Positions 9,947 to 44,692 of a DNA stretch of 55,564 nucleotides are shown piece after piece (positions within the stretch are counted from its first letter, which is position 1; each line of letters begins with the position of its first letter). The stretch comes from Armatimonadota bacterium (GTDB taxonomy: Bacteria; Armatimonadota; Hebobacteria; CAIYQO01), in assembly GCA_038215455.1 (NCBI GenBank), contig JBBQQW010000001.1, positions 1 through 55,564 on the forward strand, in the 5' to 3' direction. The translations under genes were made by a program, and so were the position numbers. The notes below the pieces were generated by a model, which was not told the origin of the DNA, ran no database searches, and saw nothing but the letters and a program-made list of their open reading frames with translations.

Positions 9947-9955
9947 TGGTATAAT
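9947..9955 (+). promoter_or_regulatory. candidate extended -10 promoter (TGgTATAAT) for secA
   Basis: TGGTATAAT lies 50 nt upstream of the secA GTG. No good -35 is seen, which is tolerated by extended -10 promoters. Confidence 0.35.
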
Positions 9956-10005
9956 GCCTTTGCGCACGTGCGCCATAAATCGCCATTCAAGAGAAGGATA
10001 ACATC

Positions 10006-28503: not shown

Positions 28504-30252
28504 ATGAATAGATTTCTGCTGTTTTGTATGCTGGTGTTGATATCCATCAGCACCATGGTCACCGCCTTTGCGGCAGGCGAGGGTGGCACTATCGGTCGCC
28601 TGGGTGATGCCGGTGCCAACATCCGCCTGGCGCAAGAGTGGATGAAAATCGACGCGGGCCAGGACTCCTACACCGTTGAAGTTACTTACAAGTTCGTCAA
28701 CGAGACGAACGTGGAAACGCTGGTGAAGATGGCCTACCCGGAGAAAATTCGGATTGATGGTGACAAAAAGACGGAAGGCTTCAGCAATTTCGAGATGTCG
28801 ATCGGCGAATTGCCGGTGAAGGCAGTTCGCACTGACGTAAGCAAGGACAAAGCGGAGAAGGGCTATACGTCGAAATGCTGGGTCAAGAACGTGAACTTCC
28901 TCGGTAAGCAGACCCGCATGGTTGCGGTGAAGTATACGAGCAAATATGGCAGCAAGGATGGCCAGAATATGCTCGATTATCATTTCAGCGACAGTGGCTG
29001 GGCTGGTAACGTTGCAAGCAGTGAGCTTCTAGCGACGGTGAGTGCCCCAGGAGCATCAATTGTAAGCCCGGGACTGGAGATGAAACATGTCGAAAACAGG
29101 CTCTATAAAAAATGGACTGATTGGAAACCCAAGTTTGATCTGGCTATGACTGTTGTTCCGACATCGGCAGATGCGTTAATGGTAGTTGATGATGTAAAAA
29201 CGGACAGCTATTTGATCGTGAATGCCGGAAAGTCTGAAACGCATATTGCTCCGGCAGCAATGCAAAAAGCAGGCGTTGTCTATACTTCACTGGATAACTT
29301 CTCTGCACGCGCAATCAAATTCGCACAAAGTGAAAAGAATCCACCAGCAGGAAAAGTAACGATGGATTGGGCGACAAAGACCAATGCTGTTACTTTGAAT
29401 ATCTGGGGAACAACGTATGTATTCACCCCGGATAGTGATGTGGCGAAAGTTGACGCCGTTGATAGCAAAATGGATGGTAAAGCGCTGCTAATACCAGACC
29501 CGCAGAAGAAAGGCGAATCGCTGATGTATGTGCCTTTGTCTGCACTCAATAAACAGCTGGACGGGGCATATGAATATAAGAAAGATGCTAACACGGTAAA
29601 GTATTCGTTTAAAGCACACACGCCGGCAGTGACAGTTCCTGAAGTACCGCTAGTAAAACCGGTTGAAGTACCAGTGGTAACTCCAACAGAAGTACCGCCG
29701 GTAAAACCCATCGAAGTACCGGTAGTTGCCCCCGTAGATGTACCGCCAGTTATTCCAGTCGAGGTTCCCAAACCGCCGAAGGATGATCTCGCCGTTACGA
29801 ATCAGGTAACAATCAACACCGCAAAAGGTGATATCGTAATTGATCTGTACGGCAATGGAGCACCCAATACGGTGGCTAACTTTGTTAAGCTTGTCGACCT
29901 GGGCTTTTATGACGGGCTGACATTTCATCGGGTTGAGACAATGAATGGCTTTCAAATCATCCAGGGTGGCGACCCTAAAGGTGATGGTACGGGTGAGTCT
30001 GCTGATAGGGTGAAGCTGGAGATAAACCCGAAATTGAAACACTGGGAAGGTGCTATAGCAATGGCACGCTCAGCCGAACCAGATAGTGCCTCTTGTCAGT
30101 TCTATATCTGTAACTGCGCGATACCGCAGCTGGACGGCCTATATGCGGTATTCGGTAGAGTGTCGGCAGGTATGGATGTCGCCAAGAAAATCACCGCTGG
30201 TGACAAAATGATCAAAGTATCAATAGTGCCGCCTGTTGCTAAAGACAAATAG
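28504..30252 (+). CDS. secreted multidomain protein: DUF4424-like N-domain + copper-amine-oxidase-N-like stalk domain + Pro-rich linker + cyclophilin-type peptidyl-prolyl isomerase
   Basis: Signal peptide ...MVTAFA|AG. The N-domain is paralogous to the next two genes. The stalk-like segment is VTMDWATKTNAVTL...GESLMYVPLSALNKQLDGAYEYKKDANTVKYSF. The cyclophilin core is FHRVE..GFQIIQGGDPKGDGTGE...GAIAMAR......SCQFYI......LDGLYAVFGRV..GMDV. Confidence 0.7.
   Translation: MNRFLLFCMLVLISISTMVTAFAAGEGGTIGRLGDAGANIRLAQEWMKIDAGQDSYTVEVTYKFVNETNVETLVKMAYPEKIRIDGDKKTEGFSNFEMSIGELPVKAVRTDVSKDKAEKGYTSKCWVKNVNFLGKQTRMVAVKYTSKYGSKDGQNMLDYHFSDSGWAGNVASSELLATVSAPGASIVSPGLEMKHVENRLYKKWTDWKPKFDLAMTVVPTSADALMVVDDVKTDSYLIVNAGKSETHIAPAAMQKAGVVYTSLDNFSARAIKFAQSEKNPPAGKVTMDWATKTNAVTLNIWGTTYVFTPDSDVAKVDAVDSKMDGKALLIPDPQKKGESLMYVPLSALNKQLDGAYEYKKDANTVKYSFKAHTPAVTVPEVPLVKPVEVPVVTPTEVPPVKPIEVPVVAPVDVPPVIPVEVPKPPKDDLAVTNQVTINTAKGDIVIDLYGNGAPNTVANFVKLVDLGFYDGLTFHRVETMNGFQIIQGGDPKGDGTGESADRVKLEINPKLKHWEGAIAMARSAEPDSASCQFYICNCAIPQLDGLYAVFGRVSAGMDVAKKITAGDKMIKVSIVPPVAKDK
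29641..29784 (+). repeat. six tandem 24-nt (8-aa) units encoding an EVPxVxPx Pro-rich linker
   Basis: GA(A/T/G)GT(A/T)CC restarts exactly every 24 nt, at 29641, 29665, 29689, 29713, 29737 and 29761. The units encode EVPLVKPV, EVPVVTPT, EVPPVKPI, EVPVVAPV, DVPPVIPV and EVPKPPKD. Confidence 0.9.
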
Positions 30253-30284
30253 TTGAGAAGGTGCGGGATGTAAAGGAGTTTGCT

Positions 30285-31448
30285 ATGAGGAACCTATCAC
30301 TATTATTCATTGCACTGCTGGCTATAGCAAGTACGGCATGGGCGAATGATACAAGCGTAGTTGGCATCGGTGGTACTGTGAATCGCATGGGCGGTGAGGA
30401 TACCAACATTCGCATGGAGCAGGAGTGGGTGAATATTGACGTTAACGAGAAGAACTACACCGTAACTGCCACTTTTAAGTTCGTTAATGATTCTGACGCC
30501 GCGCAAACCGTCGAGATGGGCTTCCCGGAAAATGGTGGTGGTGATGGAGGAAGTGGAGATACGCCCGGATTCATTTCCTTCACCAGTAAAGTCGATAATG
30601 TCGCAGTATTGGTGGAACGAAAACTCCCGCGCTCGAAAAACTTGGACGGTGAAGGGTATCAAGCTTACTGGGTGAAGAAAGTAACCTTTCAACCTCGGCA
30701 GACTCATTGGGTGCAAGTAGAATATCTATCTAACAAAGGATTGGTATCTGCGTATCCACGTAATTTTATCATTTACAATTTCACTGGTGGCAATTGGAAA
30801 GGACTGGTGTCTTCTTCTGAGTTACTGGTCACTTTCCATAATCCAGGCATGTGGCTGGTGATGAGTCATGGTGTGGATTTTAAACAGAAGGAAAACCGAC
30901 TCTATCGTAAATGGGAGAACTGGCAAGCTGAATACGTGTTTAATGTTGATTTTGCACCGACAAAGCCGGACATACTAAATCGAACTTCCCGAAGTTACAG
31001 CGAAGATAAGCAATATAATTATGTTGTGAAGAATCCTGGAAATAGCGGACACGTCGAACAGAGGCCCGATGGATTATTACTCAATAACGTGGCATTTGTG
31101 GAACTAGACGATCTGGTTAGGGAATTAGGGGAAAAAAAAGATGACCAACCAATAAAGAAGGTAGTACAGGATTGGGATGGGAAAACGAATATTGTGACGC
31201 TGCGTGTTGACGATATTGAACTTACCTTTCAACCCGATAGCGACATCATGAAGAGAAAATCTCCGATAAATGTTAATGAGGTTCTGTCTGTTAAGTATAT
31301 AAAGCTACTGGGCAAAGTATTCCTGCTTGATGATGGATACAAAAAAGGGGAAAAGCTGATGTATGTACCAGTTGCGGATGTGGTGAAAGCACTGAATGGG
31401 AAATTTGAAGAGCATCTGGAAAACCTGACAATCGATTATTCTTTTTAA
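30285..31448 (+). CDS. secreted DUF4424-like + stalk-domain protein (paralogue 2)
   Basis: ATG 30285 (AAAGGAG 7 nt upstream) gives the signal peptide MRNLSLLFIALLAIASTAWA|ND. It shares NDTSVVGIGGTV..M......NIRMEQEWVNIDV....YTVTATFKFVND......VEMGFPE, ENRLYRKWENW and GEKLMYVPVADVVKAL with its neighbours. Confidence 0.65.
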   Translation: MRNLSLLFIALLAIASTAWANDTSVVGIGGTVNRMGGEDTNIRMEQEWVNIDVNEKNYTVTATFKFVNDSDAAQTVEMGFPENGGGDGGSGDTPGFISFTSKVDNVAVLVERKLPRSKNLDGEGYQAYWVKKVTFQPRQTHWVQVEYLSNKGLVSAYPRNFIIYNFTGGNWKGLVSSSELLVTFHNPGMWLVMSHGVDFKQKENRLYRKWENWQAEYVFNVDFAPTKPDILNRTSRSYSEDKQYNYVVKNPGNSGHVEQRPDGLLLNNVAFVELDDLVRELGEKKDDQPIKKVVQDWDGKTNIVTLRVDDIELTFQPDSDIMKRKSPINVNEVLSVKYIKLLGKVFLLDDGYKKGEKLMYVPVADVVKALNGKFEEHLENLTIDYSF

Positions 31449-31479
31449 TGTTGGCGATGAATGAATAAACGGAGGGAAG

Positions 31480-32718
31480 ATGATGAGATATATAGTGGTT
31501 ATCGCTGCTGCCGTGCTTTTTGCTCTATCAGCTACAGCGGAATTTGAAGTCGTAAAAATCGTCAATGGTACAGTAGATTATGCGAAGAGCGATGCTGTGA
31601 GATGCAATCATATCTGGATTGATGTCAACATAAAACCGACTGGGTATGAATGCGTGGAGACTATTGAGTTAGAGAATATTTCCGATGATTCCGCAACAAT
31701 CAAAGTGGGGAATAATCTTGGATATATTTCCAGCGATTACCTATATGTTGAGAGTGCATATTTAGTAGATAATGCAAAAGTTAAGGCCATTCCCATGCCT
31801 TACGGGGAATTACCTTATGTTCAAAATATGGACATCATAGATCTGAAGTTTACTCCCAAGGGGATAAAGTACCTGAAATCTGAATACACCATAAAAAACA
31901 ATACGATTCCCGGATATCCGATACATGATCTATATTTTTCAATGAATACTCGCGGATGGCAGAATGATTACGTGAATCTCGGGGGAATGCCTGACTATAT
32001 GAAACCTGCATCAGTGCCGATGCTACCGGCCTGTGAGGCTCTGGTGACAATAAATCTCCCTGGGACTACAATGATACAAACGACAATATTGGAAATGAAA
32101 CATGTTGAAAACCGACTCTATTATAAGTGGCCACAGTCAGACAAAAACTTGAATTTTTACCTGGATATTACCTATCAACCAGTAATCGCCGGGGAATTGC
32201 GGACAACTCTGATAAACATGAGAGAAGAAAAGCAAAGAATTTCCAACCCCAGTAATTTTCCAGTAGTGCGTGTACATAACATTGAAATAATCGAGAACCC
32301 CGGCAAAACGGTCCCGTCCTATGCGCCGGAGACTCTTCTCCGTGATGACGTAGTCTATACGAAGATTGAAGATCTGGCGGACAATATGCTGGCGTTGAAT
32401 CGCAAAGAGAAGGTAGCGTTGAAAATTAATGAGGCTATGACAAGTGCGGTATTGATGGCCGGTAATGATGTCTTTATCTTCAGTACGGGCAGCAAGGTTT
32501 CAAACAAAGATGGCGTTGAAATCACGCAGGCAGGTGCGCCGTTCTTACTTGACGATCCGTTCAATGTGGGCGAAAAAGTACTTTACGTCCCACTTTCTTC
32601 ATTGGTAGATTTTTATAAAGGGAAGCTGACGCTGACAAAAGAACGGGCGGAGGTGAGTTATTCATTACCGGACTGGGAACCCAAAGAAAAAGTGAAACTG
32701 AATGAGAAGATGCACTAG
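31480..32718 (+). CDS. secreted DUF4424-like + stalk-domain protein (paralogue 3, most divergent)
   Basis: Signal peptide MMRYIVVIAAAVLFALSATA|EF. It keeps MKHVENRLYYKW (P1: MKHVENRLYKKW) and the C-terminal GEKVLYVPLSSLVDFYKG...AEVSYSL stalk-type motif. Confidence 0.6.
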   Translation: MMRYIVVIAAAVLFALSATAEFEVVKIVNGTVDYAKSDAVRCNHIWIDVNIKPTGYECVETIELENISDDSATIKVGNNLGYISSDYLYVESAYLVDNAKVKAIPMPYGELPYVQNMDIIDLKFTPKGIKYLKSEYTIKNNTIPGYPIHDLYFSMNTRGWQNDYVNLGGMPDYMKPASVPMLPACEALVTINLPGTTMIQTTILEMKHVENRLYYKWPQSDKNLNFYLDITYQPVIAGELRTTLINMREEKQRISNPSNFPVVRVHNIEIIENPGKTVPSYAPETLLRDDVVYTKIEDLADNMLALNRKEKVALKINEAMTSAVLMAGNDVFIFSTGSKVSNKDGVEITQAGAPFLLDDPFNVGEKVLYVPLSSLVDFYKGKLTLTKERAEVSYSLPDWEPKEKVKLNEKMH

Positions 32719-32724
32719 AAATAT

Positions 32725-32750
32725 CTCCCTCGGTGTTGCCACCGAGGGAG
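32725..32750. terminator. 11-bp hairpin between convergent genes (possible bidirectional terminator)
   Basis: CTCCCTCGGTG-ttgc-CACCGAGGGAG lies between the stop of paralogue 3 (32718) and the stop of the acyl-CoA synthetase (32759). There is no strong U-tract on either side. Confidence 0.5.
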
Positions 32751-32758
32751 GGGTTCAT

Positions 32759-34420
32759 TTACTGTATCTCGTTATCGTTCTCGCGGATTTCCACCCGGCG
32801 GATTTTGCCGCTGATGGTTTTGGGTAGCTCGGTGACGAACTCGATGATGCGCGGGTATTTGTAGGGGGCGGTGACACGCTTCACGTGCTCCTGCAGTTCA
32901 TGCACCATCTCCGGGCCTGCTGTGTGTCCCTTGGTGAGGACGACGGTAGCCTTGATCACCTGCCCACGTACTGGGTCAGGTGCGCCGGTGATAGCACACT
33001 CCATCACCGCAGGATGCTCCAGCAGTGCACTCTCCACCTCAAAGGGGCCGACGCGGTAACCGCTGGTCTTGATGAGGTCATCAGCCCGCCCCACGAACCA
33101 GTAGTAGCCATCCTCATCGCGCCACGCCATGTCACCCGTGTAGTAGATGTCGTCATGCCAGACGCTGTTGGTAAGTTCATCGTCACGCATGTAGCCACAG
33201 AACATGCCCGGTGGCTTGCTCTCGGCAGTGTGGATGACAATCTGTCCTTCTTCACCGACCTCACAACTCTCGCCTTTGCTATTCAGCAGATCGATATCAT
33301 AGAGCGGCGACGGCTTGCCCATACTTCCCGGCTTTGGCTCTAACCATGGGTAGGTGGCCAATGATACTACCGTCTCAGTCTGCCCGAAACCCTCCATAAT
33401 GCGGATACCGGTGGCTTTAAGGAAAGCGTTGTAGATCTCGGGATTCATCGGTTCGCCCGCCACCACGCAGTATTTCAGACTGCTAAGGTCGTACTTGGTC
33501 AGGTCTTCCTTGATGAGGAAGCGGAAGATCGTCGGCGGGGCGCAGAAGGTCGTCAGTTTATACTTCGCCACCTTTTCCATCAGTTTCGGCGGATCAAATC
33601 TGTCGAAATCAAAGACGAATACCGCTGACTTGCACAGCCACTGCCCGTATATTTTGCCCCATACAGCCTTCGCCCATCCTGTCTCCGCCACGGTCAGGTG
33701 CAGGCCCCCCGGGATGACATTCTGCCAGTAGCCAGCGGTGATGATATGGCCCAGCGGGTAGGTGTAGTCATGCTGTACCATCTTCGGCAACCCGGTGGTA
33801 CCACTGGTGAAGTAGAGCAGCATGATGTCGTCATTAGCGGTGCCGGCATCTCCGGTGGGGCGGGGGAATTCAGCGCTGTAGTTATCAAGTTTATCATCCA
33901 GCGTCAGCCAGCCCGTGCGCTCATTATGCAGCACGATCTTGCGCTGCAGGGTGGGGCAGTCCGGCTCCGCATGTTCCACTGCATCCAGTACGCGCGGGTC
34001 ATCCACGGAGATGATCATTTTGATGTCGGCGGCATTGCAGCGGTAGGTGATATCCTTCTTTGTGAGCAGATGCGTTGCCGGGATGGCGACAGCGCCCAGC
34101 TTATGCAGCGCGAGGAAGGTGATCCAGAATTCATAGCGACGCTTGAGAATGAGCATCACCGCATCACCCTTGCCGATTCCTAACTCGCGCAGGTAATTGG
34201 CCGCGCAGTTGCTGGCGCGGGATAATTCGGCGAAAGTAAAGGTCTTCTCTTCCTCCGCCTCATTGCACCAGACTAGCGCGGTGCGCTCCGGGTCTTCCGC
34301 GGCAATTGCATCAACAACATCGAAGGCGAAATTGAAATTTGGCGGGACATTGATGCGAAAATTCTCTTTAAAGTCCTCATAACTGGCGAAAGTCGTACGA
34401 TTAACGTATTTCTCAAACAT
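32759..34420 (-). CDS. AMP-forming acyl-CoA synthetase (medium-chain/ACSM-like)
   Basis: AMP-binding signature LLYFTSGTTGLPKMV, YGQTE-type GFGQTET, the hinge motif TGD..W.DEDGY.WF.GR.DD.IK.SGYR, and the C-terminal PKT.SGKI.R. Confidence 0.9.
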   Translation of the reverse strand: MFEKYVNRTTFASYEDFKENFRINVPPNFNFAFDVVDAIAAEDPERTALVWCNEAEEEKTFTFAELSRASNCAANYLRELGIGKGDAVMLILKRRYEFWITFLALHKLGAVAIPATHLLTKKDITYRCNAADIKMIISVDDPRVLDAVEHAEPDCPTLQRKIVLHNERTGWLTLDDKLDNYSAEFPRPTGDAGTANDDIMLLYFTSGTTGLPKMVQHDYTYPLGHIITAGYWQNVIPGGLHLTVAETGWAKAVWGKIYGQWLCKSAVFVFDFDRFDPPKLMEKVAKYKLTTFCAPPTIFRFLIKEDLTKYDLSSLKYCVVAGEPMNPEIYNAFLKATGIRIMEGFGQTETVVSLATYPWLEPKPGSMGKPSPLYDIDLLNSKGESCEVGEEGQIVIHTAESKPPGMFCGYMRDDELTNSVWHDDIYYTGDMAWRDEDGYYWFVGRADDLIKTSGYRVGPFEVESALLEHPAVMECAITGAPDPVRGQVIKATVVLTKGHTAGPEMVHELQEHVKRVTAPYKYPRIIEFVTELPKTISGKIRRVEIRENDNEIQ

Positions 34421-34461: not shown

Positions 34462-35034
34462 CTACAAGATGATGGCCAGAAACTGGGCAGATTGATTGTT
34501 AAGTGCTTTCATCCCATGATCAACGCCACTGTCAAAGTAGAGTGAATCGCCCTCATTAAGTACAATTTCATGTCCATCAATGAATATTTTCAGCGTTCCC
34601 GAGATGACGTAGTTGAACTCCTGCCCAGGGTGGCTGTTGAGCGCGAAGGGGGTATTCTCCGCCTCCGGCGGCACGGTGACGAGGAATGGCTCTGCCTTCT
34701 TATGGGCAAAGTTGGATGCCAGGCTCTGATACTGGTATTCTTTGCGGCGTTGTACCGATACTCCCTTACCCTTGCGTGCCAGGGCATAGGTATGCAGGCG
34801 CGGGTTCTCTCCCGTGAGAATTGCCGAGAGTTCCACATTGAAGCGGTTGGCGATCTGGTAGAGCACAGAGACGGAGATATCCGTCGCCCCCGCTTCATAG
34901 CGGGCATACGTCGCTGCACTGATCCCCAGCTCGCCGGCCAGCGTCTCCTGGGTAATGCCCTCAATCTCGCGTATTTCGCGGATGCGCAACGCAATCTGTT
35001 TCAATTGATCTTCCATAGCAAGCCCCCTGTCCAA
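34462..35034 (-). CDS. XRE-family HTH transcriptional regulator with C-terminal cupin domain
   Basis: IALRIREIREIEGITQETLAGELGISAATYARYEAG is HTH_3-like. The cupin is HPGQEFNYVISGTLKIFIDGHEIVLNEGDSLYFDS...H. ATG 35016 (MEDQLKQ) is an equally plausible start. Confidence 0.8.
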   Translation of the reverse strand: MDRGLAMEDQLKQIALRIREIREIEGITQETLAGELGISAATYARYEAGATDISVSVLYQIANRFNVELSAILTGENPRLHTYALARKGKGVSVQRRKEYQYQSLASNFAHKKAEPFLVTVPPEAENTPFALNSHPGQEFNYVISGTLKIFIDGHEIVLNEGDSLYFDSGVDHGMKALNNQSAQFLAIIL

Positions 35035-35079: not shown

Positions 35080-38000
35080 TTACGCCAGACGAAGGAGCAT
35101 GCGCAGCAACACCATCGGTGGGATATATGCCAGCAGGTATATCCACAGCCACCCGGGATCATAGTCCGGCTTGCCAAAGCGTGCAAACGGTGTCCAGAAC
35201 ATCTGCTTTGTCTTTGCTTTGTCGTAGACTATTTTTACTGATTTCACTGGAGAAGATGCTCCTCCAGTGATCTCGGTAAGTGCAGGTGGATATTTATCAC
35301 CGAGAACAGCGCTGATTTTTATCGGTGTTTTCTCCTTGGTTGTCAGTGTAAGATCAAATTTACCAGCGGTGGCGGTATCCATGTCTGCAGGTCGGATGCG
35401 CCAGGATATTGTCTGTGGTGTAACCCCCGCCTTCAGGTAACCCTGCAAGTCGGCCAGCATCTCTGCGCGTGCCTTTTTGGCAGCTGCCTGCACGTCCCAG
35501 GGCAGGTTGCCCATCTCGGATGGTGCCGCCCAGCGTGCCTGCAATTTCTCCAGCGTCTCTTTTATCTGCGGGATCGACTGCTCGCGTGGGGTGGTCTCAT
35601 CCAGCCGCACTGTGCCAGGAATGTCGAGAGACACCGGCTCATGCCATGTAGCATCTACTGTGGCAAGCACCATGAAGGACGTCCCGGGTGCAGGACTCCA
35701 TGCAGCCGGGTCAAGACGTTCTGGCAACCAGGAGAAGGTCATCACCATCGGGCCGAGCACCAGCGCCAGCGGGACGAATGCCGCCATGGATATCTGCCCC
35801 TGTACCGGGCGCGCCAGCTGCAGCAGTATCTTGTTCCGCGGGGAGCCGGTCGGGAAGGTCGCGGCCTCTTTGGTGAGGAGCGCAGCCCGGCGTTTCGCCT
35901 CCCAGATGCGCTTGTTATTCGTCAGCACGCTCTGCCCCACCATGGTGATGATGGCAAAGGCACAGGCAATGATGGCAACGGTTATCGGCTTGCCGAATAT
36001 GTTAACCAGCGGCCAGAGCAGAGAATCCAGTATTGCATAGCTGGGATGCTTCAAATATTGTGGCGGGAGTAGGAATACCCCGGCCAGGTAGATGGCCCAG
36101 AAAGCGATGCAGAGATTCATCAGCATCCCGGCGCGGCGGTCGGCATCACCGGGTACCGGCGGTACCAGCTCGCGTGCCACATGGGTGTCATTCTCGTCAA
36201 CGGCGGCAACATCGCAGATTTCCTGCGCGCCGCGGTAGAGTTTGCCGTGTCGGCCGTCTACCGTGATCGTCTCGCCTTCCTGCAGCAGTTCCGTCGCTCC
36301 GGCCAGCACAACTGCCGGGATGCCCATTTCGCGTGCAACCACCGCACCGTGCGAGAGCGTGCCCCCACGCTCCAGCACCAGGCCGGCGGCGTTGACGAAT
36401 AACGGAGTCCAGGAGGGATCGGTGGACGGGCAGACGAGGATGTAGCCGTTCTCCATCGCGCCCGCTTTCTCCGGCGAGAGAATAATACGCGCTGGCCCGG
36501 AAGCCGTTCCGCTGGAGATAGGGAACACCGTGATGCAATCGCCCGAAGCATGGATTATGGGTTCGCCGATACGCTCCAGTTCCGCTTCATCAATGAAGTT
36601 CGGGAGTTGGATGCGGTCTTCCGCGGCGCGCAGCATCTTGCGTTTATCTATAACCGGAAGTGGCGGATATCCAGTGAGTACTGCATGAGTGAACTCTTCA
36701 CGCGTGAGTAAGAAGACATCATCGCCGATGCCCAGGCGTCGCCCGGCTTCCAATGCCACATCGCGCAGCAGGTCGTACCCGAGCATCAGATAGTCTTTGC
36801 CGTCCTCACGGAAGTTGATATAGCGCCCAGCACGTTGCAGAATATCTTCCAGCCGGTCGGCATCCTTCGGGCTAAGCTTGCTTTGCAGTTCGTCGATACG
36901 TTTCACAGCTCGTGCGTGACGTTCCTCGCTGATAAGCTGCGGTGACCTGCCACCCGCCATGCCCTGTGCCATTTTGCGCGCTTCTTCCGGGCGTTCACGC
37001 CAGCGTGGTGAGGAGAGATCGAACTCTGCTGGGCCACGGTAGCCGTGATCTTTGATCCATTTTTCCAGCGTGCGCGTCCCGGTTGCCACTTCGTACAGTT
37101 CTGCCCCGGAGCGCAATGTGGAGTCCATTTTTGAAGAGACGACAATCTCATTAGAAAGTTCATACGGATCATCATCCCAGAAGTGTTCATTGAGAAAGCT
37201 GTGCAATTCTGCCAGAATCATGCCATCAATAAGACTGGGAAGCATAGAACTGGGGCCAAAGTCGTCCAGCACCTGCGTCTCGCGCTCCTGCAGTGCTGTG
37301 AGCAGTTCTTCATCGGATAAGATGGTGAGATCGCGATGCTTCTCTGCTTTGCACCAGGCAGCAAATGCCGGGATTATTTCGTTGGACAACCGTTTGTCGA
37401 AGTCCTCTGACATCTCCGCCAGCATACGATTGGCTGCTGCCAGCTTCCCGTTTACATTCATGCCCCCCATCATTCCGCCGATGGGGACGGTGGGAGGGGC
37501 TTGCCCGGCTTCGGGATTATTGCGGATCTCCTCTGGATCATAGGCGAAGGGGAAATCCTGGAAAAACATCTCCGGTGCGACCTTCAAGTCCATGTAGGGG
37601 CGGCCGGCGATGAGCGTGAGAAAACCTTCCGCGCAGGCGATAGGAGCAGGTACAAAACCTGCCTGCCGGTACATATTCCCGTAGCCACCTTCACCGGACA
37701 TGAAACGGCGGATAAAGCTCCAGGTGAGCGGGGTGGGGTGGGGCAGGGTTTCGGCGATGTTATGCGTCACCCACGGGCCACGTTCGTTCTCCAGTGCCGC
37801 TTTCAATTCTGTGCGTGTATTATGCAGGCACTCCTCATAGGCAGCCGCGTCACCCAGTGTGGTGATATTACGCGTCTGCAGGATGAAAAGCTCATCGTTG
37901 TGGAAGGCCCATTCGATATCCTGCGGGACGCGGAAATGCGTCGCCGCATGCCTGCCCAGTTCCCAGAGCTTCAGCACTTGCGCAGCATTAAGAGAACGCT

Positions 38001-38685
38001 TGTTGCGCATGTTGGCCGGGGTGGCACATTCCTTATGCGAGCCAGGCGCTATCCAGGTCGCTTTGTCGGAGATCTTCGCCTCAAGTACGCGGCCATCAAT
38101 GCCGGAGATACGCAACACGTCTGGTTGCACGTTGCCCGAGACAACCGATTCGCCCAGCCCCCAGCTCGCTTCGATGAGCATCTCATCGAGTGCGCCGGTG
38201 CGTGCATTGGCCGTGAAGAGCACGCCCGCTACATCGGCGGGGACGAGTATCTGTACTACTACCGCCATTGCCACCACATCAATATCAATGCCATGCTCAT
38301 GCAGGTAGCTACGCGTGCGTGGGCTGTCCAGGCTGCTCCAGCATTTCTGCACCGCATTCAGCACATCATCGACACCATTGATGTCCAGGAAGGTCTCATA
38401 TTGCCCCGCCATACTGGCATCGGCCATATCTTCCGCAGTGGCGCTGGAACGCACCGCCACCGTTGGCGAGCCGATCTGCTGGTAGCAGGTGCGGATTGCA
38501 TCGGCCAATTCGGCGGGCATGCCACCTTTGGCATGAGCGTAACGATAGGCATCGGTAGTGATGACAAAGCCACCGGGCGCGGGGAATCCTGCGCGCAACA
38601 GACGCCCGAGGTTGATTGCTTTTCCGCCGACGCGTGCAGCATCGCGCGCATCAGCGAGGTTTTGGATAAAATCGTTAGTATTCAT
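35080..38685 (-). CDS. PEP-utilising phosphotransferase (PpsA / rifampin-phosphotransferase-like: ATP-grasp + central helical region + His swivel domain) fused to a C-terminal polytopic membrane module
   Basis: The PPDK_N-type ATP-grasp covers residues 1 to about 280 (GGKAINLGRLLRAGFPAPGGFVITT, VAVRSSATAEDM, PQDIEWA). The mobile domain covers about 715-820, with ERGGTLSHGAVVAREMGIPAVV (His779, codon 36351-36349). There is no PEP/pyruvate TIM barrel. Residues about 852-1201 contain four hydrophobic helices (MLMNLCIAFWAIYLAGVFLL; ITVAIIACAFAIITMVGQSVL; ISMAAFVPLALVLGPMVMTFSWL; WLWIYLLAYIPPMVLLRMLL) and a loop of about 190 aa between helices 3 and 4. Confidence 0.75.
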   Translation of the reverse strand: MNTNDFIQNLADARDAARVGGKAINLGRLLRAGFPAPGGFVITTDAYRYAHAKGGMPAELADAIRTCYQQIGSPTVAVRSSATAEDMADASMAGQYETFLDINGVDDVLNAVQKCWSSLDSPRTRSYLHEHGIDIDVVAMAVVVQILVPADVAGVLFTANARTGALDEMLIEASWGLGESVVSGNVQPDVLRISGIDGRVLEAKISDKATWIAPGSHKECATPANMRNKRSLNAAQVLKLWELGRHAATHFRVPQDIEWAFHNDELFILQTRNITTLGDAAAYEECLHNTRTELKAALENERGPWVTHNIAETLPHPTPLTWSFIRRFMSGEGGYGNMYRQAGFVPAPIACAEGFLTLIAGRPYMDLKVAPEMFFQDFPFAYDPEEIRNNPEAGQAPPTVPIGGMMGGMNVNGKLAAANRMLAEMSEDFDKRLSNEIIPAFAAWCKAEKHRDLTILSDEELLTALQERETQVLDDFGPSSMLPSLIDGMILAELHSFLNEHFWDDDPYELSNEIVVSSKMDSTLRSGAELYEVATGTRTLEKWIKDHGYRGPAEFDLSSPRWRERPEEARKMAQGMAGGRSPQLISEERHARAVKRIDELQSKLSPKDADRLEDILQRAGRYINFREDGKDYLMLGYDLLRDVALEAGRRLGIGDDVFLLTREEFTHAVLTGYPPLPVIDKRKMLRAAEDRIQLPNFIDEAELERIGEPIIHASGDCITVFPISSGTASGPARIILSPEKAGAMENGYILVCPSTDPSWTPLFVNAAGLVLERGGTLSHGAVVAREMGIPAVVLAGATELLQEGETITVDGRHGKLYRGAQEICDVAAVDENDTHVARELVPPVPGDADRRAGMLMNLCIAFWAIYLAGVFLLPPQYLKHPSYAILDSLLWPLVNIFGKPITVAIIACAFAIITMVGQSVLTNNKRIWEAKRRAALLTKEAATFPTGSPRNKILLQLARPVQGQISMAAFVPLALVLGPMVMTFSWLPERLDPAAWSPAPGTSFMVLATVDATWHEPVSLDIPGTVRLDETTPREQSIPQIKETLEKLQARWAAPSEMGNLPWDVQAAAKKARAEMLADLQGYLKAGVTPQTISWRIRPADMDTATAGKFDLTLTTKEKTPIKISAVLGDKYPPALTEITGGASSPVKSVKIVYDKAKTKQMFWTPFARFGKPDYDPGWLWIYLLAYIPPMVLLRMLLRLA

Positions 38686-40370
38686 TCAGCTGACGTCCCA
38701 ACCAGGCAGATCAGGCCCCCCGTCTCACTTCCCACGAATACTCTACCGCCCGCCACTGTGGGCGAGGAGAAGGACATACCTTGTCCAGGAGCATCTTCTG
38801 AATTCAATGCAATAGTCTCCAGTTTCTTACCCTCGCCATCCAGTACCACCAGGTAGCCTCCGGAAGAAACTGCGTAGATGGTCTTACCGGTAAACGCCGC
38901 TGCGGCCATCACTGGTTCGCTCTCATGGGCGGTAGTTGATTTGATAATGCTGCCATCAGCGATATTCATCAATGTTATCTTACCGGTGCGTCCGGTGCAT
39001 ACGGCTACATTACCCACCACCGCCACCGCACCAAGTACCGCATCGGGGAAGTCTTTAGACCAGACGACTTTGCCGTCTGCGCGATTGATAGCTAAAACCT
39101 TGCCGGCAGGATTCTTCTTATCGGCGTAGACAAAGTCACCGTTGCCAACACCGGTTATTATTATGTCACCGACGACGGTGATTGCTCCGGTAGCCGGATA
39201 TGTGGTATCCGCGGACCAGAGGATATTACCAGCGCCTTCACCTTCCAGCTTAATCGCCACCACTTTATTTCCATTGAAACCACTGCCGATGTAGACAATA
39301 CCATCGACGATGGCGGGAGAGCTTTCCGGGTCGTTAACCGGATGTCGCCACAGTACGGTACCATCGCTAATTTGCACGGCGATAACTTCACCGGGGGCGG
39401 AAATAGGTTTATGGTCTGGACCTTCAATAGCCCCGCACCCCACAACCGCGATGTCTCCCCAGATAGCCGGGGAGCTTTCAATATGCAGTGTGGAGGGTGC
39501 CTGCCAGCGTATTGCCCCCGTGACTGCATCCATACAAACTAATGAGCAATTCATATCAGGATGTAATCCCAGGCCAATGAGTAGATTCGCCCCGTCAGCT
39601 GTAACTGCCGGAGAAGAGAATATCCCCGGGAAAGCTTTCCCATCATTACCTGCACTTGTTTTCCATATCAATGTACCACTTTCTGCATCCAGGCAGATGA
39701 CGGAGCCGTAGTAGGCACCGCCTTTTAACACAGAGACGGAACTATATAGCTTATTGCCGACGAGCAATGGTGATGATAATGACGTGCTGTTATCTTCGGA
39801 ATAACTCCAGAATTTCGCTAACCCACGCGGGCCGGGGCTACCATCCCATGCTGTACGAGCAACACCCATGCCTAAGATGTATGGGCTGGCTGCGCCTGTA
39901 GCAGCACCATTTCCATCGGTTATGACATTGCCAGTCGTTGGATCAATAATTGTGCCATTGAAACTGGTAAGTCCGCCGGGATTCAATAATGAGGTGGTTG
40001 CACTGCCAGTGCCGGGCATACCGGCTATTGGGCCTTTGCCCCCCGTTTTGTCGCGACGCAGGATATCCAGGGCGACGGCGGCCCAATCAGTTTTACTGGT
40101 GGGTTCCCCCGCCACTGTGGTTCCGGTAGTTGCGGCGACTGCCTGGTGTGGCCCGAATGCCCAACTTCCGCCAAACCATAATCCTGCCCCGATGGCAATA
40201 ACCAGGAATGGCATCCAAGGTTTGCGTTTGAAAGCTGCCACTAATTCCTTGGGCTTCATGATAATCGCTGCTACGCTAGCGAAGCCTGCAATTATGGCCG
40301 GGAAGAGGGCAGCACCGGCGTTGACAAAGATCGGCACCACGGCCGGAGAAGTCTCTGGGATAGGCAGCAT
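38682..40370 (-). CDS. membrane-anchored PQQ-like (BamB-type) beta-propeller repeat protein
   Basis: Two N-terminal TM helices (AGAALFPAIIAGFASVAAII; WMPFLVIAIGAGLWFGGSWAF). These are followed by repeated blades of the type G.VY.GS..G.l.A.d..tG...W (VICLDAESGTLIWK, GKVLAINRADGKVVWS, GKITLMNIADGSIIKS, GRVFVGSETGGLICL). The stop overlaps the next gene's ATG (ATGA, 38682-38685). Confidence 0.75.
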   Translation of the reverse strand: MLPIPETSPAVVPIFVNAGAALFPAIIAGFASVAAIIMKPKELVAAFKRKPWMPFLVIAIGAGLWFGGSWAFGPHQAVAATTGTTVAGEPTSKTDWAAVALDILRRDKTGGKGPIAGMPGTGSATTSLLNPGGLTSFNGTIIDPTTGNVITDGNGAATGAASPYILGMGVARTAWDGSPGPRGLAKFWSYSEDNSTSLSSPLLVGNKLYSSVSVLKGGAYYGSVICLDAESGTLIWKTSAGNDGKAFPGIFSSPAVTADGANLLIGLGLHPDMNCSLVCMDAVTGAIRWQAPSTLHIESSPAIWGDIAVVGCGAIEGPDHKPISAPGEVIAVQISDGTVLWRHPVNDPESSPAIVDGIVYIGSGFNGNKVVAIKLEGEGAGNILWSADTTYPATGAITVVGDIIITGVGNGDFVYADKKNPAGKVLAINRADGKVVWSKDFPDAVLGAVAVVGNVAVCTGRTGKITLMNIADGSIIKSTTAHESEPVMAAAAFTGKTIYAVSSGGYLVVLDGEGKKLETIALNSEDAPGQGMSFSSPTVAGGRVFVGSETGGLICLVGTSAE

Positions 40371-40552
40371 GTAAAATCCTCGCTATTTGTGTTAGAATTG
40401 TGTTTAATTATCGGGAATACCGGCGTTATCGTCAAGTTTTTCCGATCTCAAATTATTTGACAAAAAATCTTACCGTTTGTTCCACTTTCTGAAGAGAACA
40501 GATGTATATTTTTGGTGTCAAACTACCTAGTTTAGTGAATATGGAGATTATG

Positions 40553-42379
40553 ATGAAGATCAAACAGATTGTCATGCTTGTGTGTTGCAGCATTTCCGCT
40601 CAGATGTTGCTGGCCGTGGTTCCTCTGAACCCGATCGGGGCGGGGATATACCCCGAGGTCATTCTGCAGGCGCAGGTCACTGCGACGCCGGCAGGTGGCC
40701 AGCTGGCATTGGCAGAGATTGCCACCCTCCAGGGCGATGCACCACTGATTCTCAAAACGGTTACGGTTTCAGCTGCTGCAGCTCCCAAACTAGCGGCGGA
40801 ATGTGCAGCAGGCCCGCAGATGGCGCTCATCTTCTGGGGTGAGACCGGGCAAGCGGATAAGAATATCGCCGGTGTACTGCACGTCGGAGCATCGTGGCTG
40901 ACATTTTCCAAAAATGATGATGGCGTGACTCTCGACGACCAGCAACTGGATATCAACCTTACCTGGGGTGGTATCACCGATTCGCTGCAGGCCACTGTCG
41001 ACTACATCGCAACGCACCCAGCGGCGGATGTACATACCCGCTGGGGTGGTGAACTGAAAATCGGCGAATTCGCTGGTGTCGTATCTTCGGCGCAGGCAGT
41101 TGACCTGTTGGGTGACGGACGGCCGTGTCTATACCTGGCCTCACTTGCAGGAGACCGGGCTTTCCGCATAAAGGATGATGGTACTGCTGAAGAGCTTACT
41201 GCTCAATTGGGGATAACGGCGAAATCGAAGCTGGTGACCTTTGGCACCTTCGATAATTCGGGTAAAATGGGAATAGCCAGCTGGTCAGCAGGTAAGTTGT
41301 ATATCTACGCACAAGCAGATGGCAAATTCGCAACAGCGCCGCTGGAAGTTGCGCAGGATGATTGCATTGGTATCAGCTCGATACCCAGTGGTATAGCGGG
41401 ACAAGCTGCCATACTGGTGTCACGTTCCGAGGCAAAAGCGCCAGTGATTGTCTCTCCGGGTAAAGACGCTGTTATACTGGCCACAGCAAATAGTTGGGTA
41501 AAAAGCGAAGCAACCCGCTGTGCAGTTGCCGATTTCAATGGTGACGGAATCATTGATATCGCACAACCGTTCAGTAAAGGTGTGTTATTCTACCAGGGGA
41601 ATAAAGATGGCACATTCCAGGCTGGCGCGAATAAGAGCGTTGTGTCGTTACCGAAAGACATGTTGGCATTGAATGTTGCTGATATCGATGCCGATGGCCA
41701 GTTGGACTTCATCGTAACCGCGCGTACCGGGACGATCATTCTGCGCAACGCCGGCAACGGTAACTTCTCCCCGGTACTACGCGCCCTCGGTGGTATGCGC
41801 GACGCTACACGCTCCTCGCTGGAATGTTCACCGATTGATTACGACAACGACGGGCGCATTGACCTGTTCATACGCTACCAGGGATTGATGCCGCAGGCGC
41901 TGATTAACTGCGGTTTTTCAAAATTCATCCAGTCAGGTAATCTGAGTCTCGCAGGTGTTGAGACCAAAGATGCCGACGGGAAAGTATTGGCCCCAGCCTG
42001 GCAAATGGCCTGTGCTGATGATATGAAAGATGAGCAGGGTGCCCTGGCGGTGGGCGACTTTAACGGTGATAACGTAGAAGATATTGTGCTGGTAGGCCAG
42101 CCGGGGAATAAGATCTGGTTGCTGACGGCAGATAACGCTGCGGGTAAATTGGCGCTCAATGTTACGCTACCGGCAACATCTGCAGGGCAGCAAGTGGTAG
42201 TAGCGTATACTGGCAAACGTTGCCTGGGTGCCAGATTGATAGAGCCAGGCAAGCCGGCATTTTTCGGCATAGCCAATAAGGGGCCGATTACACTGCAATG
42301 GACTACCACGGATGGAATAGCACACAGCAAAAAAGTAGTAGTTTTGAAGTCAACTCGTGTAGAATTAGCTGCTGAATAG
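40553..42379 (+). CDS. secreted FG-GAP/VCBS repeat (integrin-alpha-like propeller) protein
   Basis: Signal peptide MKIKQIVMLVCCSISAQMLLA. Ca-binding FG-GAP loops: ADFNGDGIIDI, DIDADGQLDFIV, DYDNDGRIDLFI, GDFNGDNVEDIVLVG. The track start is 40502. I prefer ATG 40553, 6 nt after GGAG. Confidence 0.75.
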   Translation: MKIKQIVMLVCCSISAQMLLAVVPLNPIGAGIYPEVILQAQVTATPAGGQLALAEIATLQGDAPLILKTVTVSAAAAPKLAAECAAGPQMALIFWGETGQADKNIAGVLHVGASWLTFSKNDDGVTLDDQQLDINLTWGGITDSLQATVDYIATHPAADVHTRWGGELKIGEFAGVVSSAQAVDLLGDGRPCLYLASLAGDRAFRIKDDGTAEELTAQLGITAKSKLVTFGTFDNSGKMGIASWSAGKLYIYAQADGKFATAPLEVAQDDCIGISSIPSGIAGQAAILVSRSEAKAPVIVSPGKDAVILATANSWVKSEATRCAVADFNGDGIIDIAQPFSKGVLFYQGNKDGTFQAGANKSVVSLPKDMLALNVADIDADGQLDFIVTARTGTIILRNAGNGNFSPVLRALGGMRDATRSSLECSPIDYDNDGRIDLFIRYQGLMPQALINCGFSKFIQSGNLSLAGVETKDADGKVLAPAWQMACADDMKDEQGALAVGDFNGDNVEDIVLVGQPGNKIWLLTADNAAGKLALNVTLPATSAGQQVVVAYTGKRCLGARLIEPGKPAFFGIANKGPITLQWTTTDGIAHSKKVVVLKSTRVELAAE

Positions 42380-42400
42380 TAGAAATAGATGGAGAAAATG

Positions 42401-44692
42401 ATGCGTTTGTCACTCTTAGTGATAGTAATTACCGTATTCGTGTGCGGCATGATATCGACCGCTGCCGACTGGCCGATGACGCGGGGTGGCCTGGCGCGCA
42501 CCGGCGTGGCGCAGGGGACAGCTGAACCGCAACGGCCGATATTGAATTGGCGCTGGCGTGATGGCGAGGAGTCGTTTTTCTCCTCTCCCGCGATTGCAAA
42601 TGGCAAAGTATATGTGACTTCTGGGACAATCGGTGCCCTGGCGGAGAGCGGGGCGATATATTGCTTTGATGCGGCCAGCGGCAAGATGCTCTGGAAGTGC
42701 TCCCCTCCCGGCTACCGCGCCACCTTCTCCTCGCCGGTGATCTCCGGGAAATATCTGGTGGTGGGGGAAGGCCTGCACGTATGCCGTGATGCCCGGCTGG
42801 TCTGCCTGGACATCAGTGGTGAGCAGCCGAAAATCCTCTGGACATACCGCGCCAACAGCCACATCGAATGTACGCCAGTGATCGATAATGGTCGCGTCTA
42901 TGTAGGTGCAGGCGATGATGGTTACTACTGCCTGAATCTGGAGCCAGACGCTGCCGGGCAACCGGTGGTGAATTGGCATGCCCCCGGTGCAAATTATAAG
43001 GATGCTGAAACCTCGCTGGCAGTGGCAGGAGGTAAGGTATATGCCGGCTTAGGCATCGGTGGCCGCGAACTCTGCGTTTTGGATGCTATTACCGGCGTCG
43101 AGCAGCAGCGGGTTAAGATGCCATATCCAGTGTTCAGCCCGGCGACTATTGTGGATGGTAAATTGTATCTCGGCATGGGCAATGGCGACTATATCAACGC
43201 CAACCCCGGTGGCGAAGTGCGTTGTATCGACATTGCCACCATGGCTACTGATTGGACCTATCCGTTGACACAGACGGTACTGGGCGCAGTGGTGAGTGTG
43301 GGCGACAAATTGTACTTCGGATCCCGTGATGGCTGGCTCTATTGCGTGGATAAGGCAGGAAAATTACTGGGGAAATACGATACCCATGGGCCAATCGTCA
43401 CCTCACCGGCGGTGAGCGAACATTTCGTCTATGTGATGAGTGACACCGGCTTCCTCACCGCGATCAATCGAGCGGATTTGACCTTCAGCTGGGAGTTCAT
43501 GGTCGGCAGCAAGCCGCTCTTCATCAGCTCGCCTTCCGTGGGCAATGGGCAGGTATTCATCGGCTCGCAGCAGGATGGCCTGCTGGCTATTGGCGCGGCG
43601 GATAAGCCAGCAATAGCCACCTGGAATGGCTACCTGGGCCAGGCAGGACGTACGGGGAATCTGGATGATTCGCCCCTCGCGGATGCCGGTGCTTTCCAGT
43701 GGAACTACCCGGCAGAGATGATGGGGGAGAATGCGGCGAAACTGGTAGTAGCCCCTGCCGCCGTCGCCGGGAAGAATATCATTATTCCCATGACCGGGAA
43801 ACAATCCGGCGTAGTATGCCTGCCCGCAGATGCATCGGCGCAAGAGACGCCAAAGATTCGCTGGGCATATACCACCGCTAACCCGGTATCGCTCTCACCG
43901 GTGATAATAGGTGAGAATGTTTTTGTCGTCGACGGCATACCCGGCATGGCAGCACGCACGCTGACTTGCCTGAATGTTGCGGATGGGAAGAAGCGTTGGA
44001 CCGTGCCGGTTGCTGACGGTACCGGCGTCTTCTCCGCTACCGAGAATGAGATAATCATACAGGATATTGCCGGAAAGGTCAGTTGCATTGAGCTGGATGG
44101 CAAAGCGCGCTGGGCGATTAATGCCGGTGGGGTAATTGATGGCTTCTGCATAGCGGGAGACACAGTCTATTTCGCGACCGCGAATGAATTGGTAGCGGTG
44201 AATCGCCTGACAGGCAAAGATGCATTCAGCGTACCGGTAAATGCATTGGCAGCTCCTGTTGTAGCTAATGGTGTCATCTACCTGGCCACCAGCAAAGGAA
44301 TTGAAGCACGCGATGCCAAAACCGGTGAATTAACACCCAATGGGCTGTTACCCGGCGGTGCCGCTACTGGTGCATTCGCCGTCACGCGCAATGAGATCGT
44401 CTACGTCAATGGCGCAGGTGAGCTGGTTATTATCGAGCGCACCAGCGGTAAGATCATCAACAGTATCGCGAAAGCACTGCCGATTCCCCCATTAGTGAGC
44501 CGCAACATGGTGCTATATCTGACGAAAGACAGCATCATGCGCCTGGATTTGGCACGCCCCACAGTAAAGCCGACGCAATGGCTGGACACCAGCTGGCTGG
44601 GAGAAGCCACAACCCCGATGGTACTATCCCGTGGCAACGTCTACCTGGGCATGGCAGGGTGGGGGCTGGTACGGGCTGGGCGCGGGCAGTAG
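42401..44692 (+). CDS. secreted tandem PQQ-like beta-propeller repeat protein
   Basis: Signal peptide MRLSLLVIVITVFVCGMISTAA, then DWPMTRGGLARTG, the usual opening of PQQ-like/BamB-type propellers. Roughly 14-16 blade-like repeats follow (GKVYVTS, GRVYVGAGDDGYYCL, GKLYLGMGNG, DKLYFGSRDGWLYCVD...). The track start is 42389; ATG 42401 lies 6 nt after GGAG. Confidence 0.75.
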   Translation: MRLSLLVIVITVFVCGMISTAADWPMTRGGLARTGVAQGTAEPQRPILNWRWRDGEESFFSSPAIANGKVYVTSGTIGALAESGAIYCFDAASGKMLWKCSPPGYRATFSSPVISGKYLVVGEGLHVCRDARLVCLDISGEQPKILWTYRANSHIECTPVIDNGRVYVGAGDDGYYCLNLEPDAAGQPVVNWHAPGANYKDAETSLAVAGGKVYAGLGIGGRELCVLDAITGVEQQRVKMPYPVFSPATIVDGKLYLGMGNGDYINANPGGEVRCIDIATMATDWTYPLTQTVLGAVVSVGDKLYFGSRDGWLYCVDKAGKLLGKYDTHGPIVTSPAVSEHFVYVMSDTGFLTAINRADLTFSWEFMVGSKPLFISSPSVGNGQVFIGSQQDGLLAIGAADKPAIATWNGYLGQAGRTGNLDDSPLADAGAFQWNYPAEMMGENAAKLVVAPAAVAGKNIIIPMTGKQSGVVCLPADASAQETPKIRWAYTTANPVSLSPVIIGENVFVVDGIPGMAARTLTCLNVADGKKRWTVPVADGTGVFSATENEIIIQDIAGKVSCIELDGKARWAINAGGVIDGFCIAGDTVYFATANELVAVNRLTGKDAFSVPVNALAAPVVANGVIYLATSKGIEARDAKTGELTPNGLLPGGAATGAFAVTRNEIVYVNGAGELVIIERTSGKIINSIAKALPIPPLVSRNMVLYLTKDSIMRLDLARPTVKPTQWLDTSWLGEATTPMVLSRGNVYLGMAGWGLVRAGRGQ

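Follow-up and report, generated by a model that had tools for sequence, protein, structure and literature searches.

A conserved gene pair encoding a membrane-anchored beta-propeller and a dikinase fused to a DUF106-like membrane module

What would a phosphotransferase with a membrane module of its own do beside a membrane-anchored beta-propeller? The question is raised by two overlapping genes on the minus strand of a 55,564-nucleotide (nt) stretch of DNA from an Armatimonadota bacterium (contig JBBQQW010000001.1, positions 1 to 55,564; hereafter the window), which otherwise resembles ordinary chromosome and encodes SecA, PurL, a GH42 enzyme and a cyclophilin. Both open reading frames (ORFs) were confirmed, at positions 38682-40370 (562 amino acids (aa), gene 1) and 35080-38685 (1201 aa, gene 2). 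Gene 1 encodes a BamB-like beta-propeller of the PQQ_2 type that is anchored in the membrane, and gene 2 a fusion between a dikinase of the rifampin phosphotransferase (RPH) type and a DUF106-like membrane module. Our tentative reading, to which we assign a probability of about 0.4, is that the two products form part of a membrane complex in which phosphate would pass from ATP via a swivelling histidine to a membrane-associated acceptor, with a groove in the membrane core that would offer access or passage towards the propellers.

Coupling and conservation of the gene pair

The first-pass annotation had noted that the stop codon of the propeller gene overlaps the start codon of the phosphotransferase gene, and the junction can be read directly as GCT GAA TGA / ATG AAT, a 4-nt ATGA overlap at 38682-38685 on the minus strand that is consistent with translational coupling. 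We propose that, through this coupling of stop and start, the gene 1 product is made in fixed proportion to that of gene 2. A consensus scan identified a promoter-like site upstream of gene 1, TTGACG-17-GATAAT (40407-40435, minus strand), which agrees at 10 of 12 positions and is a pattern match only; it lies within the 131-nt divergent intergenic region that the propeller gene has in common with an FG-GAP gene described below. When operator-like inverted repeats were sought in this region, only one 9-nt A/T-rich pair was found. A second promoter-like site is present at 35187-35158, within the 3' end of gene 2, and the first terminator-like hairpin on the minus strand downstream of 40370 is a strong, bidirectional one with a stem of 11-12 bp at 32724-32751, with none found before it. 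A 451-aa ORF on the plus strand (37501-38856) lies opposite the junction of the pair, where the propeller gene ends and the fusion gene begins, and several shorter antisense ORFs occur as well; these antisense frames are most likely non-coding by-products of the codon bias of the real genes.

Relatives of gene 2 are widespread. A search with its C-terminal 354 aa returned 18 relatives in a word-indexed database, two of which had been named "DUF106 family" by JGI, and an exhaustive profile search of 1.84 billion representatives retrieved 375 proteins, of which 216 reached E<=1e-10. Lengths among the full-length representatives listed are about 1100-1420 aa, mostly 1160-1245 aa, and the membrane module occupies the C-terminus. 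Stand-alone or split forms of the module (350-500 aa) were also encountered and, where checked, were rejected as contig ends or frameshifted long-read assemblies. One family member of 1422 aa (P0030) has several in-frame copies of an insert of ~30 aa (EFPFVECGSEATA...ALPHSTN) in its ATP-grasp and acceptor domains, as if a repeated element had inserted itself into the coding sequence.

A scan of one genome per species yielded 30 loci, and altogether 34 related loci were examined by comparing the proteins of the window, using BLAST, with all of their stop-to-stop ORFs. The carriers belong to the Planctomycetota (Tepidisphaerales, Phycisphaerae, Planctomycetaceae and Brocadiaceae), the Verrucomicrobiota (Akkermansiaceae and Chthoniobacterales), the Kiritimatiellota (Kiritimatiellales/Pontiellaceae, including one isolate, B12227, locus L017) and the Lentisphaerota (Lentisphaeria); two further carrier bins are oddly labelled as Anaerolineales and Bacillota. 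Every related locus with enough DNA (21/21) encodes the complete fusion of ATP-grasp, middle, histidine and membrane parts, and a propeller ortholog stands directly upstream of the fusion in 20 of the 21 loci with enough upstream DNA, so that the proposed conservation of the neighbourhood across genomes holds. These upstream propellers are 35-48% identical to gene 1 compared with 25-31% to a second PQQ_2 protein of the window. In addition, 15 of the 18 scorable loci offer an in-frame start codon that overlaps the propeller stop (13 with ATGA or GTGA, one with an 8-nt overlap and one with TGATG), and the remaining three have gaps of 46-237 nt between propeller and fusion instead. Although a lone 4-nt overlap is common, the pairing exceeds chance because an overlapping start is available in 15 of 18 loci across four phyla. 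Thus, the gene pair appears, from the genomes compared, to be conserved mainly in the group formed by the Planctomycetota, Verrucomicrobiota, Kiritimatiellota and Lentisphaerota (the PVC group).

Domain architecture of the two proteins

The N-terminal, cytoplasmic part of the gene 2 product comprises three domains in the order that is also found in RPH and in the PigC/RedH-type dikinases of the PEP-synthase/PPDK superfamily. An ATP-grasp domain (aa 1-300; 37786-38685, minus strand, as are all features of the pair) is followed by an acceptor-binding middle domain (aa 301-720; 36526-37785) and by a swivelling phospho-histidine domain (aa 721-830; 36196-36525) with the catalytic His779 in GGTLSHGAVVARE. 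The first and last of these are matched in Pfam by PPDK_N (PF01326; 7.4e-77) and PEP-utilizers (PF00391; 1.6e-24, aa 745-814), respectively. The best solved relative is the RPH of Listeria (RPH-Lm; 5FBS/5HV1) with an E-value of 1.6e-71 and identical domain order, the histidine domain lying C-terminal to the acceptor domain in gene 2 as in 5FBS. In RPH the key residues are K22, R117 and T136 of the ATP site, H825 as the phosphate carrier, and R666, E667 and K670 of the acceptor site (PMC4844700). When the window protein was aligned with 38 full-length representatives (39 members in all), the equivalent positions were occupied by K22, R79 and T98, by His779, and by R626/E627/K630 of a FREDGK motif. 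His779 and the R626/E627/K630 triad are invariant in 39 of 39 members, and overall six of the seven key residues never vary, the seventh, T98, being Thr or Ser. All mutationally defined catalytic residues of RPH-Lm thus have their counterpart in gene 2, which bears out the earlier view of an ATP-using phosphotransferase that works through a histidine swivel. Because the key residues of the ATP site, the histidine and the acceptor site are kept, both half-reactions would be expected to work, and RPH-type chemistry, ATP + acceptor-OH + H2O -> AMP + Pi + acceptor-phosphate, is predicted.

The resemblance to RPH-Lm is uneven. The middle domain scanned alone gives no match in Pfam, and although its second half aligns with the rifampin (RIF)-binding domain of 5FBS, the first half (aa ~300-528) fails to align and is unrelated to the rifampin pocket. 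With the RPH equivalog model (NF041857), gene 2 scores 328 bits compared with a cut-off of 999, and it is likewise far below the cut-offs of the PigC and PEP-synthase equivalogs. Unlike RPH-Lm, gene 2 has ~350 extra residues that constitute a membrane module with four transmembrane (TM) helices and a periplasmic domain, and it is paired with periplasmic propellers. Since the module is added C-terminally, the swivel domain would be tethered at both ends, unlike that of RPH-Lm.

The membrane module begins with an extra helix, TM0 (aa 853-877; 36055-36129), predicted from hydropathy and present as a helix in an AlphaFold2 (AF2) model. It leads into the first part of a DUF106/Ylp1-like core (aa 878-986; 35728-36054), which consists, in order, of a short amphipathic outer helix, TM1 (aa 898-920), a basic cytoplasmic coiled-coil hairpin (aa 921-966; 9 K/R against 2 D/E) and TM2 (aa 967-986). 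A 190-aa insertion (aa 987-1176; 35158-35727) separates this part from the last helix, TM3 (aa 1177-1197), which falls within a C-terminal DUF106-like segment (aa 1177-1201; 35083-35157) with the motif GWLxxYLLAYxP. The 190-aa loop is predicted to be periplasmic because the enzyme, as a user of ATP, has to be on the cytoplasmic side and because the charge of the basic hairpin agrees with the positive-inside rule, and TM0, by bringing the chain from the cytoplasm to the outside, would allow the DUF106 core to keep its N-out orientation. The AF2 model of the 354-aa C-terminal part (predicted local distance difference test (pLDDT) 80) contains the expected helices, and an AF2 model of the 190-aa insertion (pLDDT 83.5) has a clear fold class, namely a beta-sandwich with a helical hairpin; a Foldseek search with this loop alone gave weak Ig-like or beta-sandwich matches, the best at E 0.045, and no significant relative in the PDB.

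Several comparisons relate the helical core to the DUF106 family. The last 354 residues of gene 2 match nothing in Pfam even at E<=10; among 19 family members, three show a weak match to PF01956 (best E 0.0027, below the gathering threshold), the only Pfam family besides PEP-utilizers that is matched by several members. When the 19-sequence family profile was searched against the PDB, the archaeal DUF106 protein MJ0480 (Ylp1; 5C8J) was the sole significant match (E=1.1e-4), and with a broader profile of 30 sequences it reached E=2e-7, the next match being at 0.43. The match spans the outer amphipathic helix, TM1, the coiled-coil hairpin and TM2, and a weak second stretch aligns the last helix (GWLxxYLLAY) with the last TM of MJ0480 (LGWLGWYIL). 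In addition, hhalign against 15 Methanococcales DUF106/EMC3_TMCO1 proteins returned a probability of 88.8% (E 2.5e-6, 105 columns). In column identity the core (0.56-0.59) is on a par with the catalytic domains (0.54-0.65), with the polar residues Q918, R964, Y1183 and Y1187 invariant and D923, R926, W986, R990 and W1179 also kept. On these profile comparisons, we regard the membrane part as a DUF106/EMC3/Ylp1-type core, that is, of the YidC-like Oxa1 superfamily, rather than a generic anchor.

With the branch of the Oxa1 superfamily formed by DUF106/Ylp1 (MJ0480), EMC3 and TMCO1, the module shares the outer amphipathic helix, TM1, the basic coiled-coil hairpin, a TM2 with a conserved proline, a last TM with a GWLxxY motif, and the N-out/C-in topology. 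It differs in being bacterial, DUF106 having been described as an archaeal and eukaryotic family (PMC5868721), in its fusion via the added TM0 to an 850-aa enzyme, and in having the 190-aa beta-sandwich in place of the short TM2-TM3 loop of MJ0480. The relationship lies under the Pfam threshold, and insertase activity is a candidate function only.

Gene 1 matches PQQ_2 (PF13360) with 8.9e-31 and 107.8 bits against a cut-off of 27.6. Its product starts with a nine-residue tail, TM1 (aa 10-37; 40260-40343; motif VVPIFVNAGAALxPA..AG), a basic loop (aa 38-52; KPKEL...KRKP, 5 K/R) and TM2 (aa 53-72; 40155-40214), followed by the propeller domain proper (aa ~181-562; 38685-39830). The N-terminus is thus a hairpin of two TM helices, as the first-pass annotation had proposed, and carries no lipobox. 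The five basic residues of the inter-helix loop predict that it is cytoplasmic and that the propeller is periplasmic; with hydropathy and charge also placing the ~190-aa loop of gene 2 on the periplasmic side, both would occupy the same compartment, in line with the earlier suggestion. The most conserved segment of the whole protein is TM1 (VVPIFVNAGAALLPA..AG, then KPxEL), where column identity reaches 0.71, the propeller having 0.65 and TM2 0.43, and on this ground TM1 does not look like a passive anchor. P13, G19 and P24 are invariant. Because a polar Asn and three Pro/Gly positions are fixed within a TM helix, a specific contact within the membrane seems probable. Among the related loci, a regular expression for the TM1 motif finds gene 1 orthologs only, and a word-based search of a large database for other carriers of the N-terminal hairpin returned a single 92-aa fragment.

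The earlier description of the propeller as PQQ-like holds only at the level of the fold, the protein scoring far under the cut-offs both for BamB (TIGR03300; 67 compared with 285 bits) and for PQQ alcohol dehydrogenase (TIGR03075; 58 compared with 480 bits). In a profile search of the PDB, designed propellers ranked higher than any natural protein, of which BamB was the best match, followed by tetrathionate hydrolase and PQQ enzymes. Like BamB (YfgL), the scaffold protein of the BAM complex, gene 1 would form an eight-bladed periplasmic propeller of PQQ_2 type; unlike BamB, it has a conserved two-helix hairpin in the inner membrane instead of a lipid anchor, as well as polar motifs of its own. 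These motifs (GLHxD, HIESSP, GAIE, DPESSP and GNGD) are conserved after the IGxG strands, and their arrangement as a ring suggests a ligand or metal site on one face of the propeller.

Partners and neighbours of the pair

The pair had been pictured as a two-component envelope machine, a description that is too narrow, since in most loci a secreted FG-GAP propeller is encoded beside it and the system has at least three parts. The FG-GAP/VCBS protein of the window (40502-42379, plus strand; 625 aa; FG-GAP_3, 6.7e-23) starts with a signal-like helix, and its gene is divergent from the propeller gene. All-against-all clustering of the flanking ORFs, which was used to find recurrent neighbours, shows an FG-GAP protein directly adjoining the pair in about 19 loci, the window included. 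The gene lies immediately upstream on the same strand in six (L006, L013, L017, L019, L020, L023), immediately downstream on the same strand in nine (L004, L005, L007, L010, L014, L015, L018, L024, L031) and convergent downstream in three (L009, L028, L029); in three further loci it is one gene away. As these proteins diverge in size and sequence, the association is one of domain class.

Other neighbours recur less often. A second PQQ_2 propeller of 767 aa with several propeller segments (42389-44692, plus strand) begins 9 nt beyond the FG-GAP gene; this paralog of gene 1 does not have the conserved TM1 motif, was not seen adjoining the pair in the other loci, and may be a local accessory. In five loci (L011, L012, L021, L022 and L030, the last at 8858-11173), a protein of ~700-770 aa with a C-terminal calcineurin-like phosphoesterase domain (Metallophos) stands beside the module and, together with the phosphotransferase, could hint at a cycle of phosphorylation and dephosphorylation. 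A TPR protein of 1100-1200 aa is encoded divergently upstream of the propeller in L001, L008 (1-3372, minus strand), L024, L026 and L031, and a secreted protein of ~470-600 aa with a VWAKPG...W motif occurs in L006 (190-1806), L017 (2-1498), L027 (4454-6247), L034 (825-2228) and L021 (3-710), having a C-terminal CHB_HEX_C_1/Fn3_assoc domain in two of these loci and otherwise no match in Pfam. None of these three neighbours, each present in about five loci, has a homolog in the window.

Downstream of gene 2 on the same strand, an XRE-cupin regulator (34462-35034; HTH_3 and Cupin_2 in Pfam) follows after 45 nt and an MbcS-like acyl-CoA synthetase (32759-34420; NCBIfam and Pfam) after a further 41 nt. 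For the regulator, an ATG at 35016, with AGGGGG situated 8 nt before it, is a likelier start than the TTG at 35034 given by the ORF finder. The suggestion that the transcription unit extends to 32759 agrees with the common strand, the short gaps and the position of the first hairpin, and the XRE-cupin gene is possibly co-transcribed with the pair in this genome; as a functional unit, however, it finds no support, as homologs of the regulator and the synthetase were found in 0 of the 34 related loci, which places both genes outside the module that these loci indicate is conserved.

Elsewhere in the window, two adjacent plus-strand genes (30261-31448 and 31480-32718) encode secreted-looking proteins that have no Pfam match and C-terminal ends that are alike by eye (not aligned). 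The region around them (30001-32000) shows a marked dip in G+C, 0.43 compared with 0.50-0.58 nearby. In SecA (10006-13455, plus strand), the SecA_DEAD match covers aa 8-456 and yet no more than 285 positions of the profile, so that the motor domain may contain a large insertion.

A possible membrane phosphotransfer complex and its alternatives

We envisage the products as a single envelope complex, in which the dikinase of gene 2 would be tethered via TM0 to a three-helix core of DUF106 type whose outer loop has grown into the 190-aa periplasmic beta-sandwich. Gene 1 would contribute a periplasmic BamB-like propeller held by its two-helix hairpin, whose strictly conserved TM1, with its Asn and Pro residues, most probably contacts the DUF106 core inside the membrane, and the secreted FG-GAP propeller would be the third partner. 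ATP would pyrophosphorylate His779, the gamma-phosphate being lost as Pi, and the swivel domain would then carry the beta-phosphate to the R626/E627/K630 site, where the hydroxyl of a membrane-associated acceptor, either lipid-linked or amphipathic, would be phosphorylated. By way of the hydrophilic groove of the DUF106 core, the acceptor or its product may enter the membrane, or cross it, in the direction of the periplasmic propeller platform. Such a role for the groove is plausible because insertases of the Oxa1 superfamily also scramble lipids (PMC11047089) and because a small TM protein accompanies its archaeal and eukaryotic members (PMC8675477).

The endoplasmic reticulum membrane protein complex (EMC) offers an analogy for this layout: in it, the DUF106-type EMC3 is associated with the lumenal, membrane-anchored beta-propeller EMC1 and with beta-sandwich domains on the non-cytoplasmic side. 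The likeness, a DUF106-type core together with a membrane-anchored propeller and a beta-sandwich on the non-cytoplasmic side, is by analogy only. The propeller of gene 1 has an N-terminal anchor, unlike EMC1, whose anchor is C-terminal, and the EMC has no kinase. With the propeller as query, EMC1 did not appear as a family at E<=0.01 in Pfam or as a chain among the best 60 of 72 sequence matches in the PDB, and the TM hairpin of gene 1 gave no match to EMC6 in Pfam even at E<=10. We therefore rejected homology to an EMC-like complex, as neither EMC1 nor EMC6 provides a sequence link.

Several observations weigh against the membrane-acceptor complex that we favour. Contact between the proteins is deduced from synteny and conservation only, and the acceptor site is in a soluble domain, so that a soluble metabolite could equally be the acceptor. 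The homology to DUF106 spans about 105-110 aligned columns, the window protein itself reaches no PF01956 score in Pfam, and the 354-aa model gave no significant Foldseek match in the PDB, Oxa1-family structures included, its helical core being small and split by the insertion. One fusion locus (L025, 1655-2929) has no propeller adjacent upstream and a gene with a SpoIID domain in its place. Finally, no genes for lipid or glycan biosynthesis are conserved beside the module, and the occasional neighbours give no clear pathway.

One alternative is a transmembrane sensor-enzyme, in which an external ligand would be bound by the propellers and the beta-sandwich, the DUF106-like helices would be no more than an anchor and a conduit for the signal, and the dikinase would respond by phosphorylating a soluble metabolite in the cytoplasm. 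In its favour, ligand binding is typical of propellers, the domain with the acceptor site is soluble and homologous to the RIF-binding domain, and regulators are found downstream in some loci (the XRE-cupin protein here, a response regulator and a histidine kinase in L002). These regulators are not conserved, however, no signalling role is known for the DUF106 fold, the swivel domain is not free but joined to the membrane module, and the membrane core, its polar residues included, matches the catalytic domains in conservation, beyond what an anchor needs; we consider this arrangement unlikely. Somewhat less likely still is a dedicated, regulated or energised insertase, whose DUF106 core would retain its ancestral task of inserting TM segments with short translocated tails, the N-out TM1 of the propeller among them, and whose dikinase would regulate or drive the process by phosphorylating client or core, or mechanically through a swivel movement of >40 Å. 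The homology to the Ylp1 and EMC3 insertases, the short N-tail and very conserved TM1 of the propeller (a classical YidC-type substrate topology), and a swivel domain tethered on both sides directly before TM0 all fit an insertase, yet a requirement for ATP or a kinase is not known for any member of the Oxa1 family, the targets of RPH-type enzymes are hydroxyls of small molecules and not proteins (PMC4844700), and the sole client-like motif found is that of the propeller itself. The boldest variant, which we rate a little lower again, is that PVC bacteria carry an archaeal/eukaryotic-type YidC (DUF106/EMC3-like) machine directly energised by ATP, in which the swing of the phospho-histidine domain (>40 Å) or the phosphoryl group itself would power the movement of a client (insertion, translocation or flipping) through an Oxa1-type groove to the propeller platform on the far side; if true, the Oxa1 superfamily would gain its first energy-coupled member, and bacteria an analogue of the EMC3-EMC1 arrangement.

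Two further explanations seem considerably more remote. That propeller, fusion, XRE-cupin regulator and acyl-CoA synthetase form one functional system of four genes, including an adenylating enzyme, is suggested by their common strand, by gaps of 41-63 nt and by the lack of a terminator-like hairpin until 32724-32751; we think it improbable, given that neither downstream gene has a homolog in the related loci, where the downstream genes are unrelated or encode FG-GAP proteins, and that the 3' end of gene 2 contains a promoter-like site. Very improbable indeed is a standard rifamycin-resistance phosphotransferase with an incidental membrane anchor. RPH-Lm is the closest solved structure and one family member has been annotated automatically as a rifampicin phosphotransferase, but the equivalog score and the divergent pocket led us to reject rifampin resistance, and the conserved membrane and periplasmic partners would have no role in the inactivation of a drug. 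The antibiotic role at which the kinship to RPH had seemed to hint thus finds no evidence here.

The literature searched contains no paper on DUF106 in PVC bacteria, none of relevance on their RPH/PEP-synthase-type enzymes, and no description of a dikinase-DUF106 fusion combined with a propeller; we class the system as a new architectural variant assembled from known families. The Oxa1 superfamily (YidC, Oxa1, EMC3, GET1, TMCO1 and Ylp1) is regarded as comprising passive, energy-independent insertases, and here a bacterial core of apparent DUF106 type is permanently fused to an intact ATP-dependent dikinase. For the PEP-synthase/RPH family, gene 2 would be an integral-membrane member, of which the literature searched describes none, and it points to a non-antibiotic, envelope-related acceptor in a family of enzymes with few known natural substrates. 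The reading makes simple biochemical predictions, namely labelling of His779, release of AMP and Pi, and transfer of the label to the acceptor, and candidate hosts for genetics exist, including the isolate Pontiellaceae B12227. PVC bacteria are noted for their unusual cell envelopes, and since the module is conserved in four of their phyla, accompanied by two periplasmic propellers, it probably serves an envelope function throughout the lineage.

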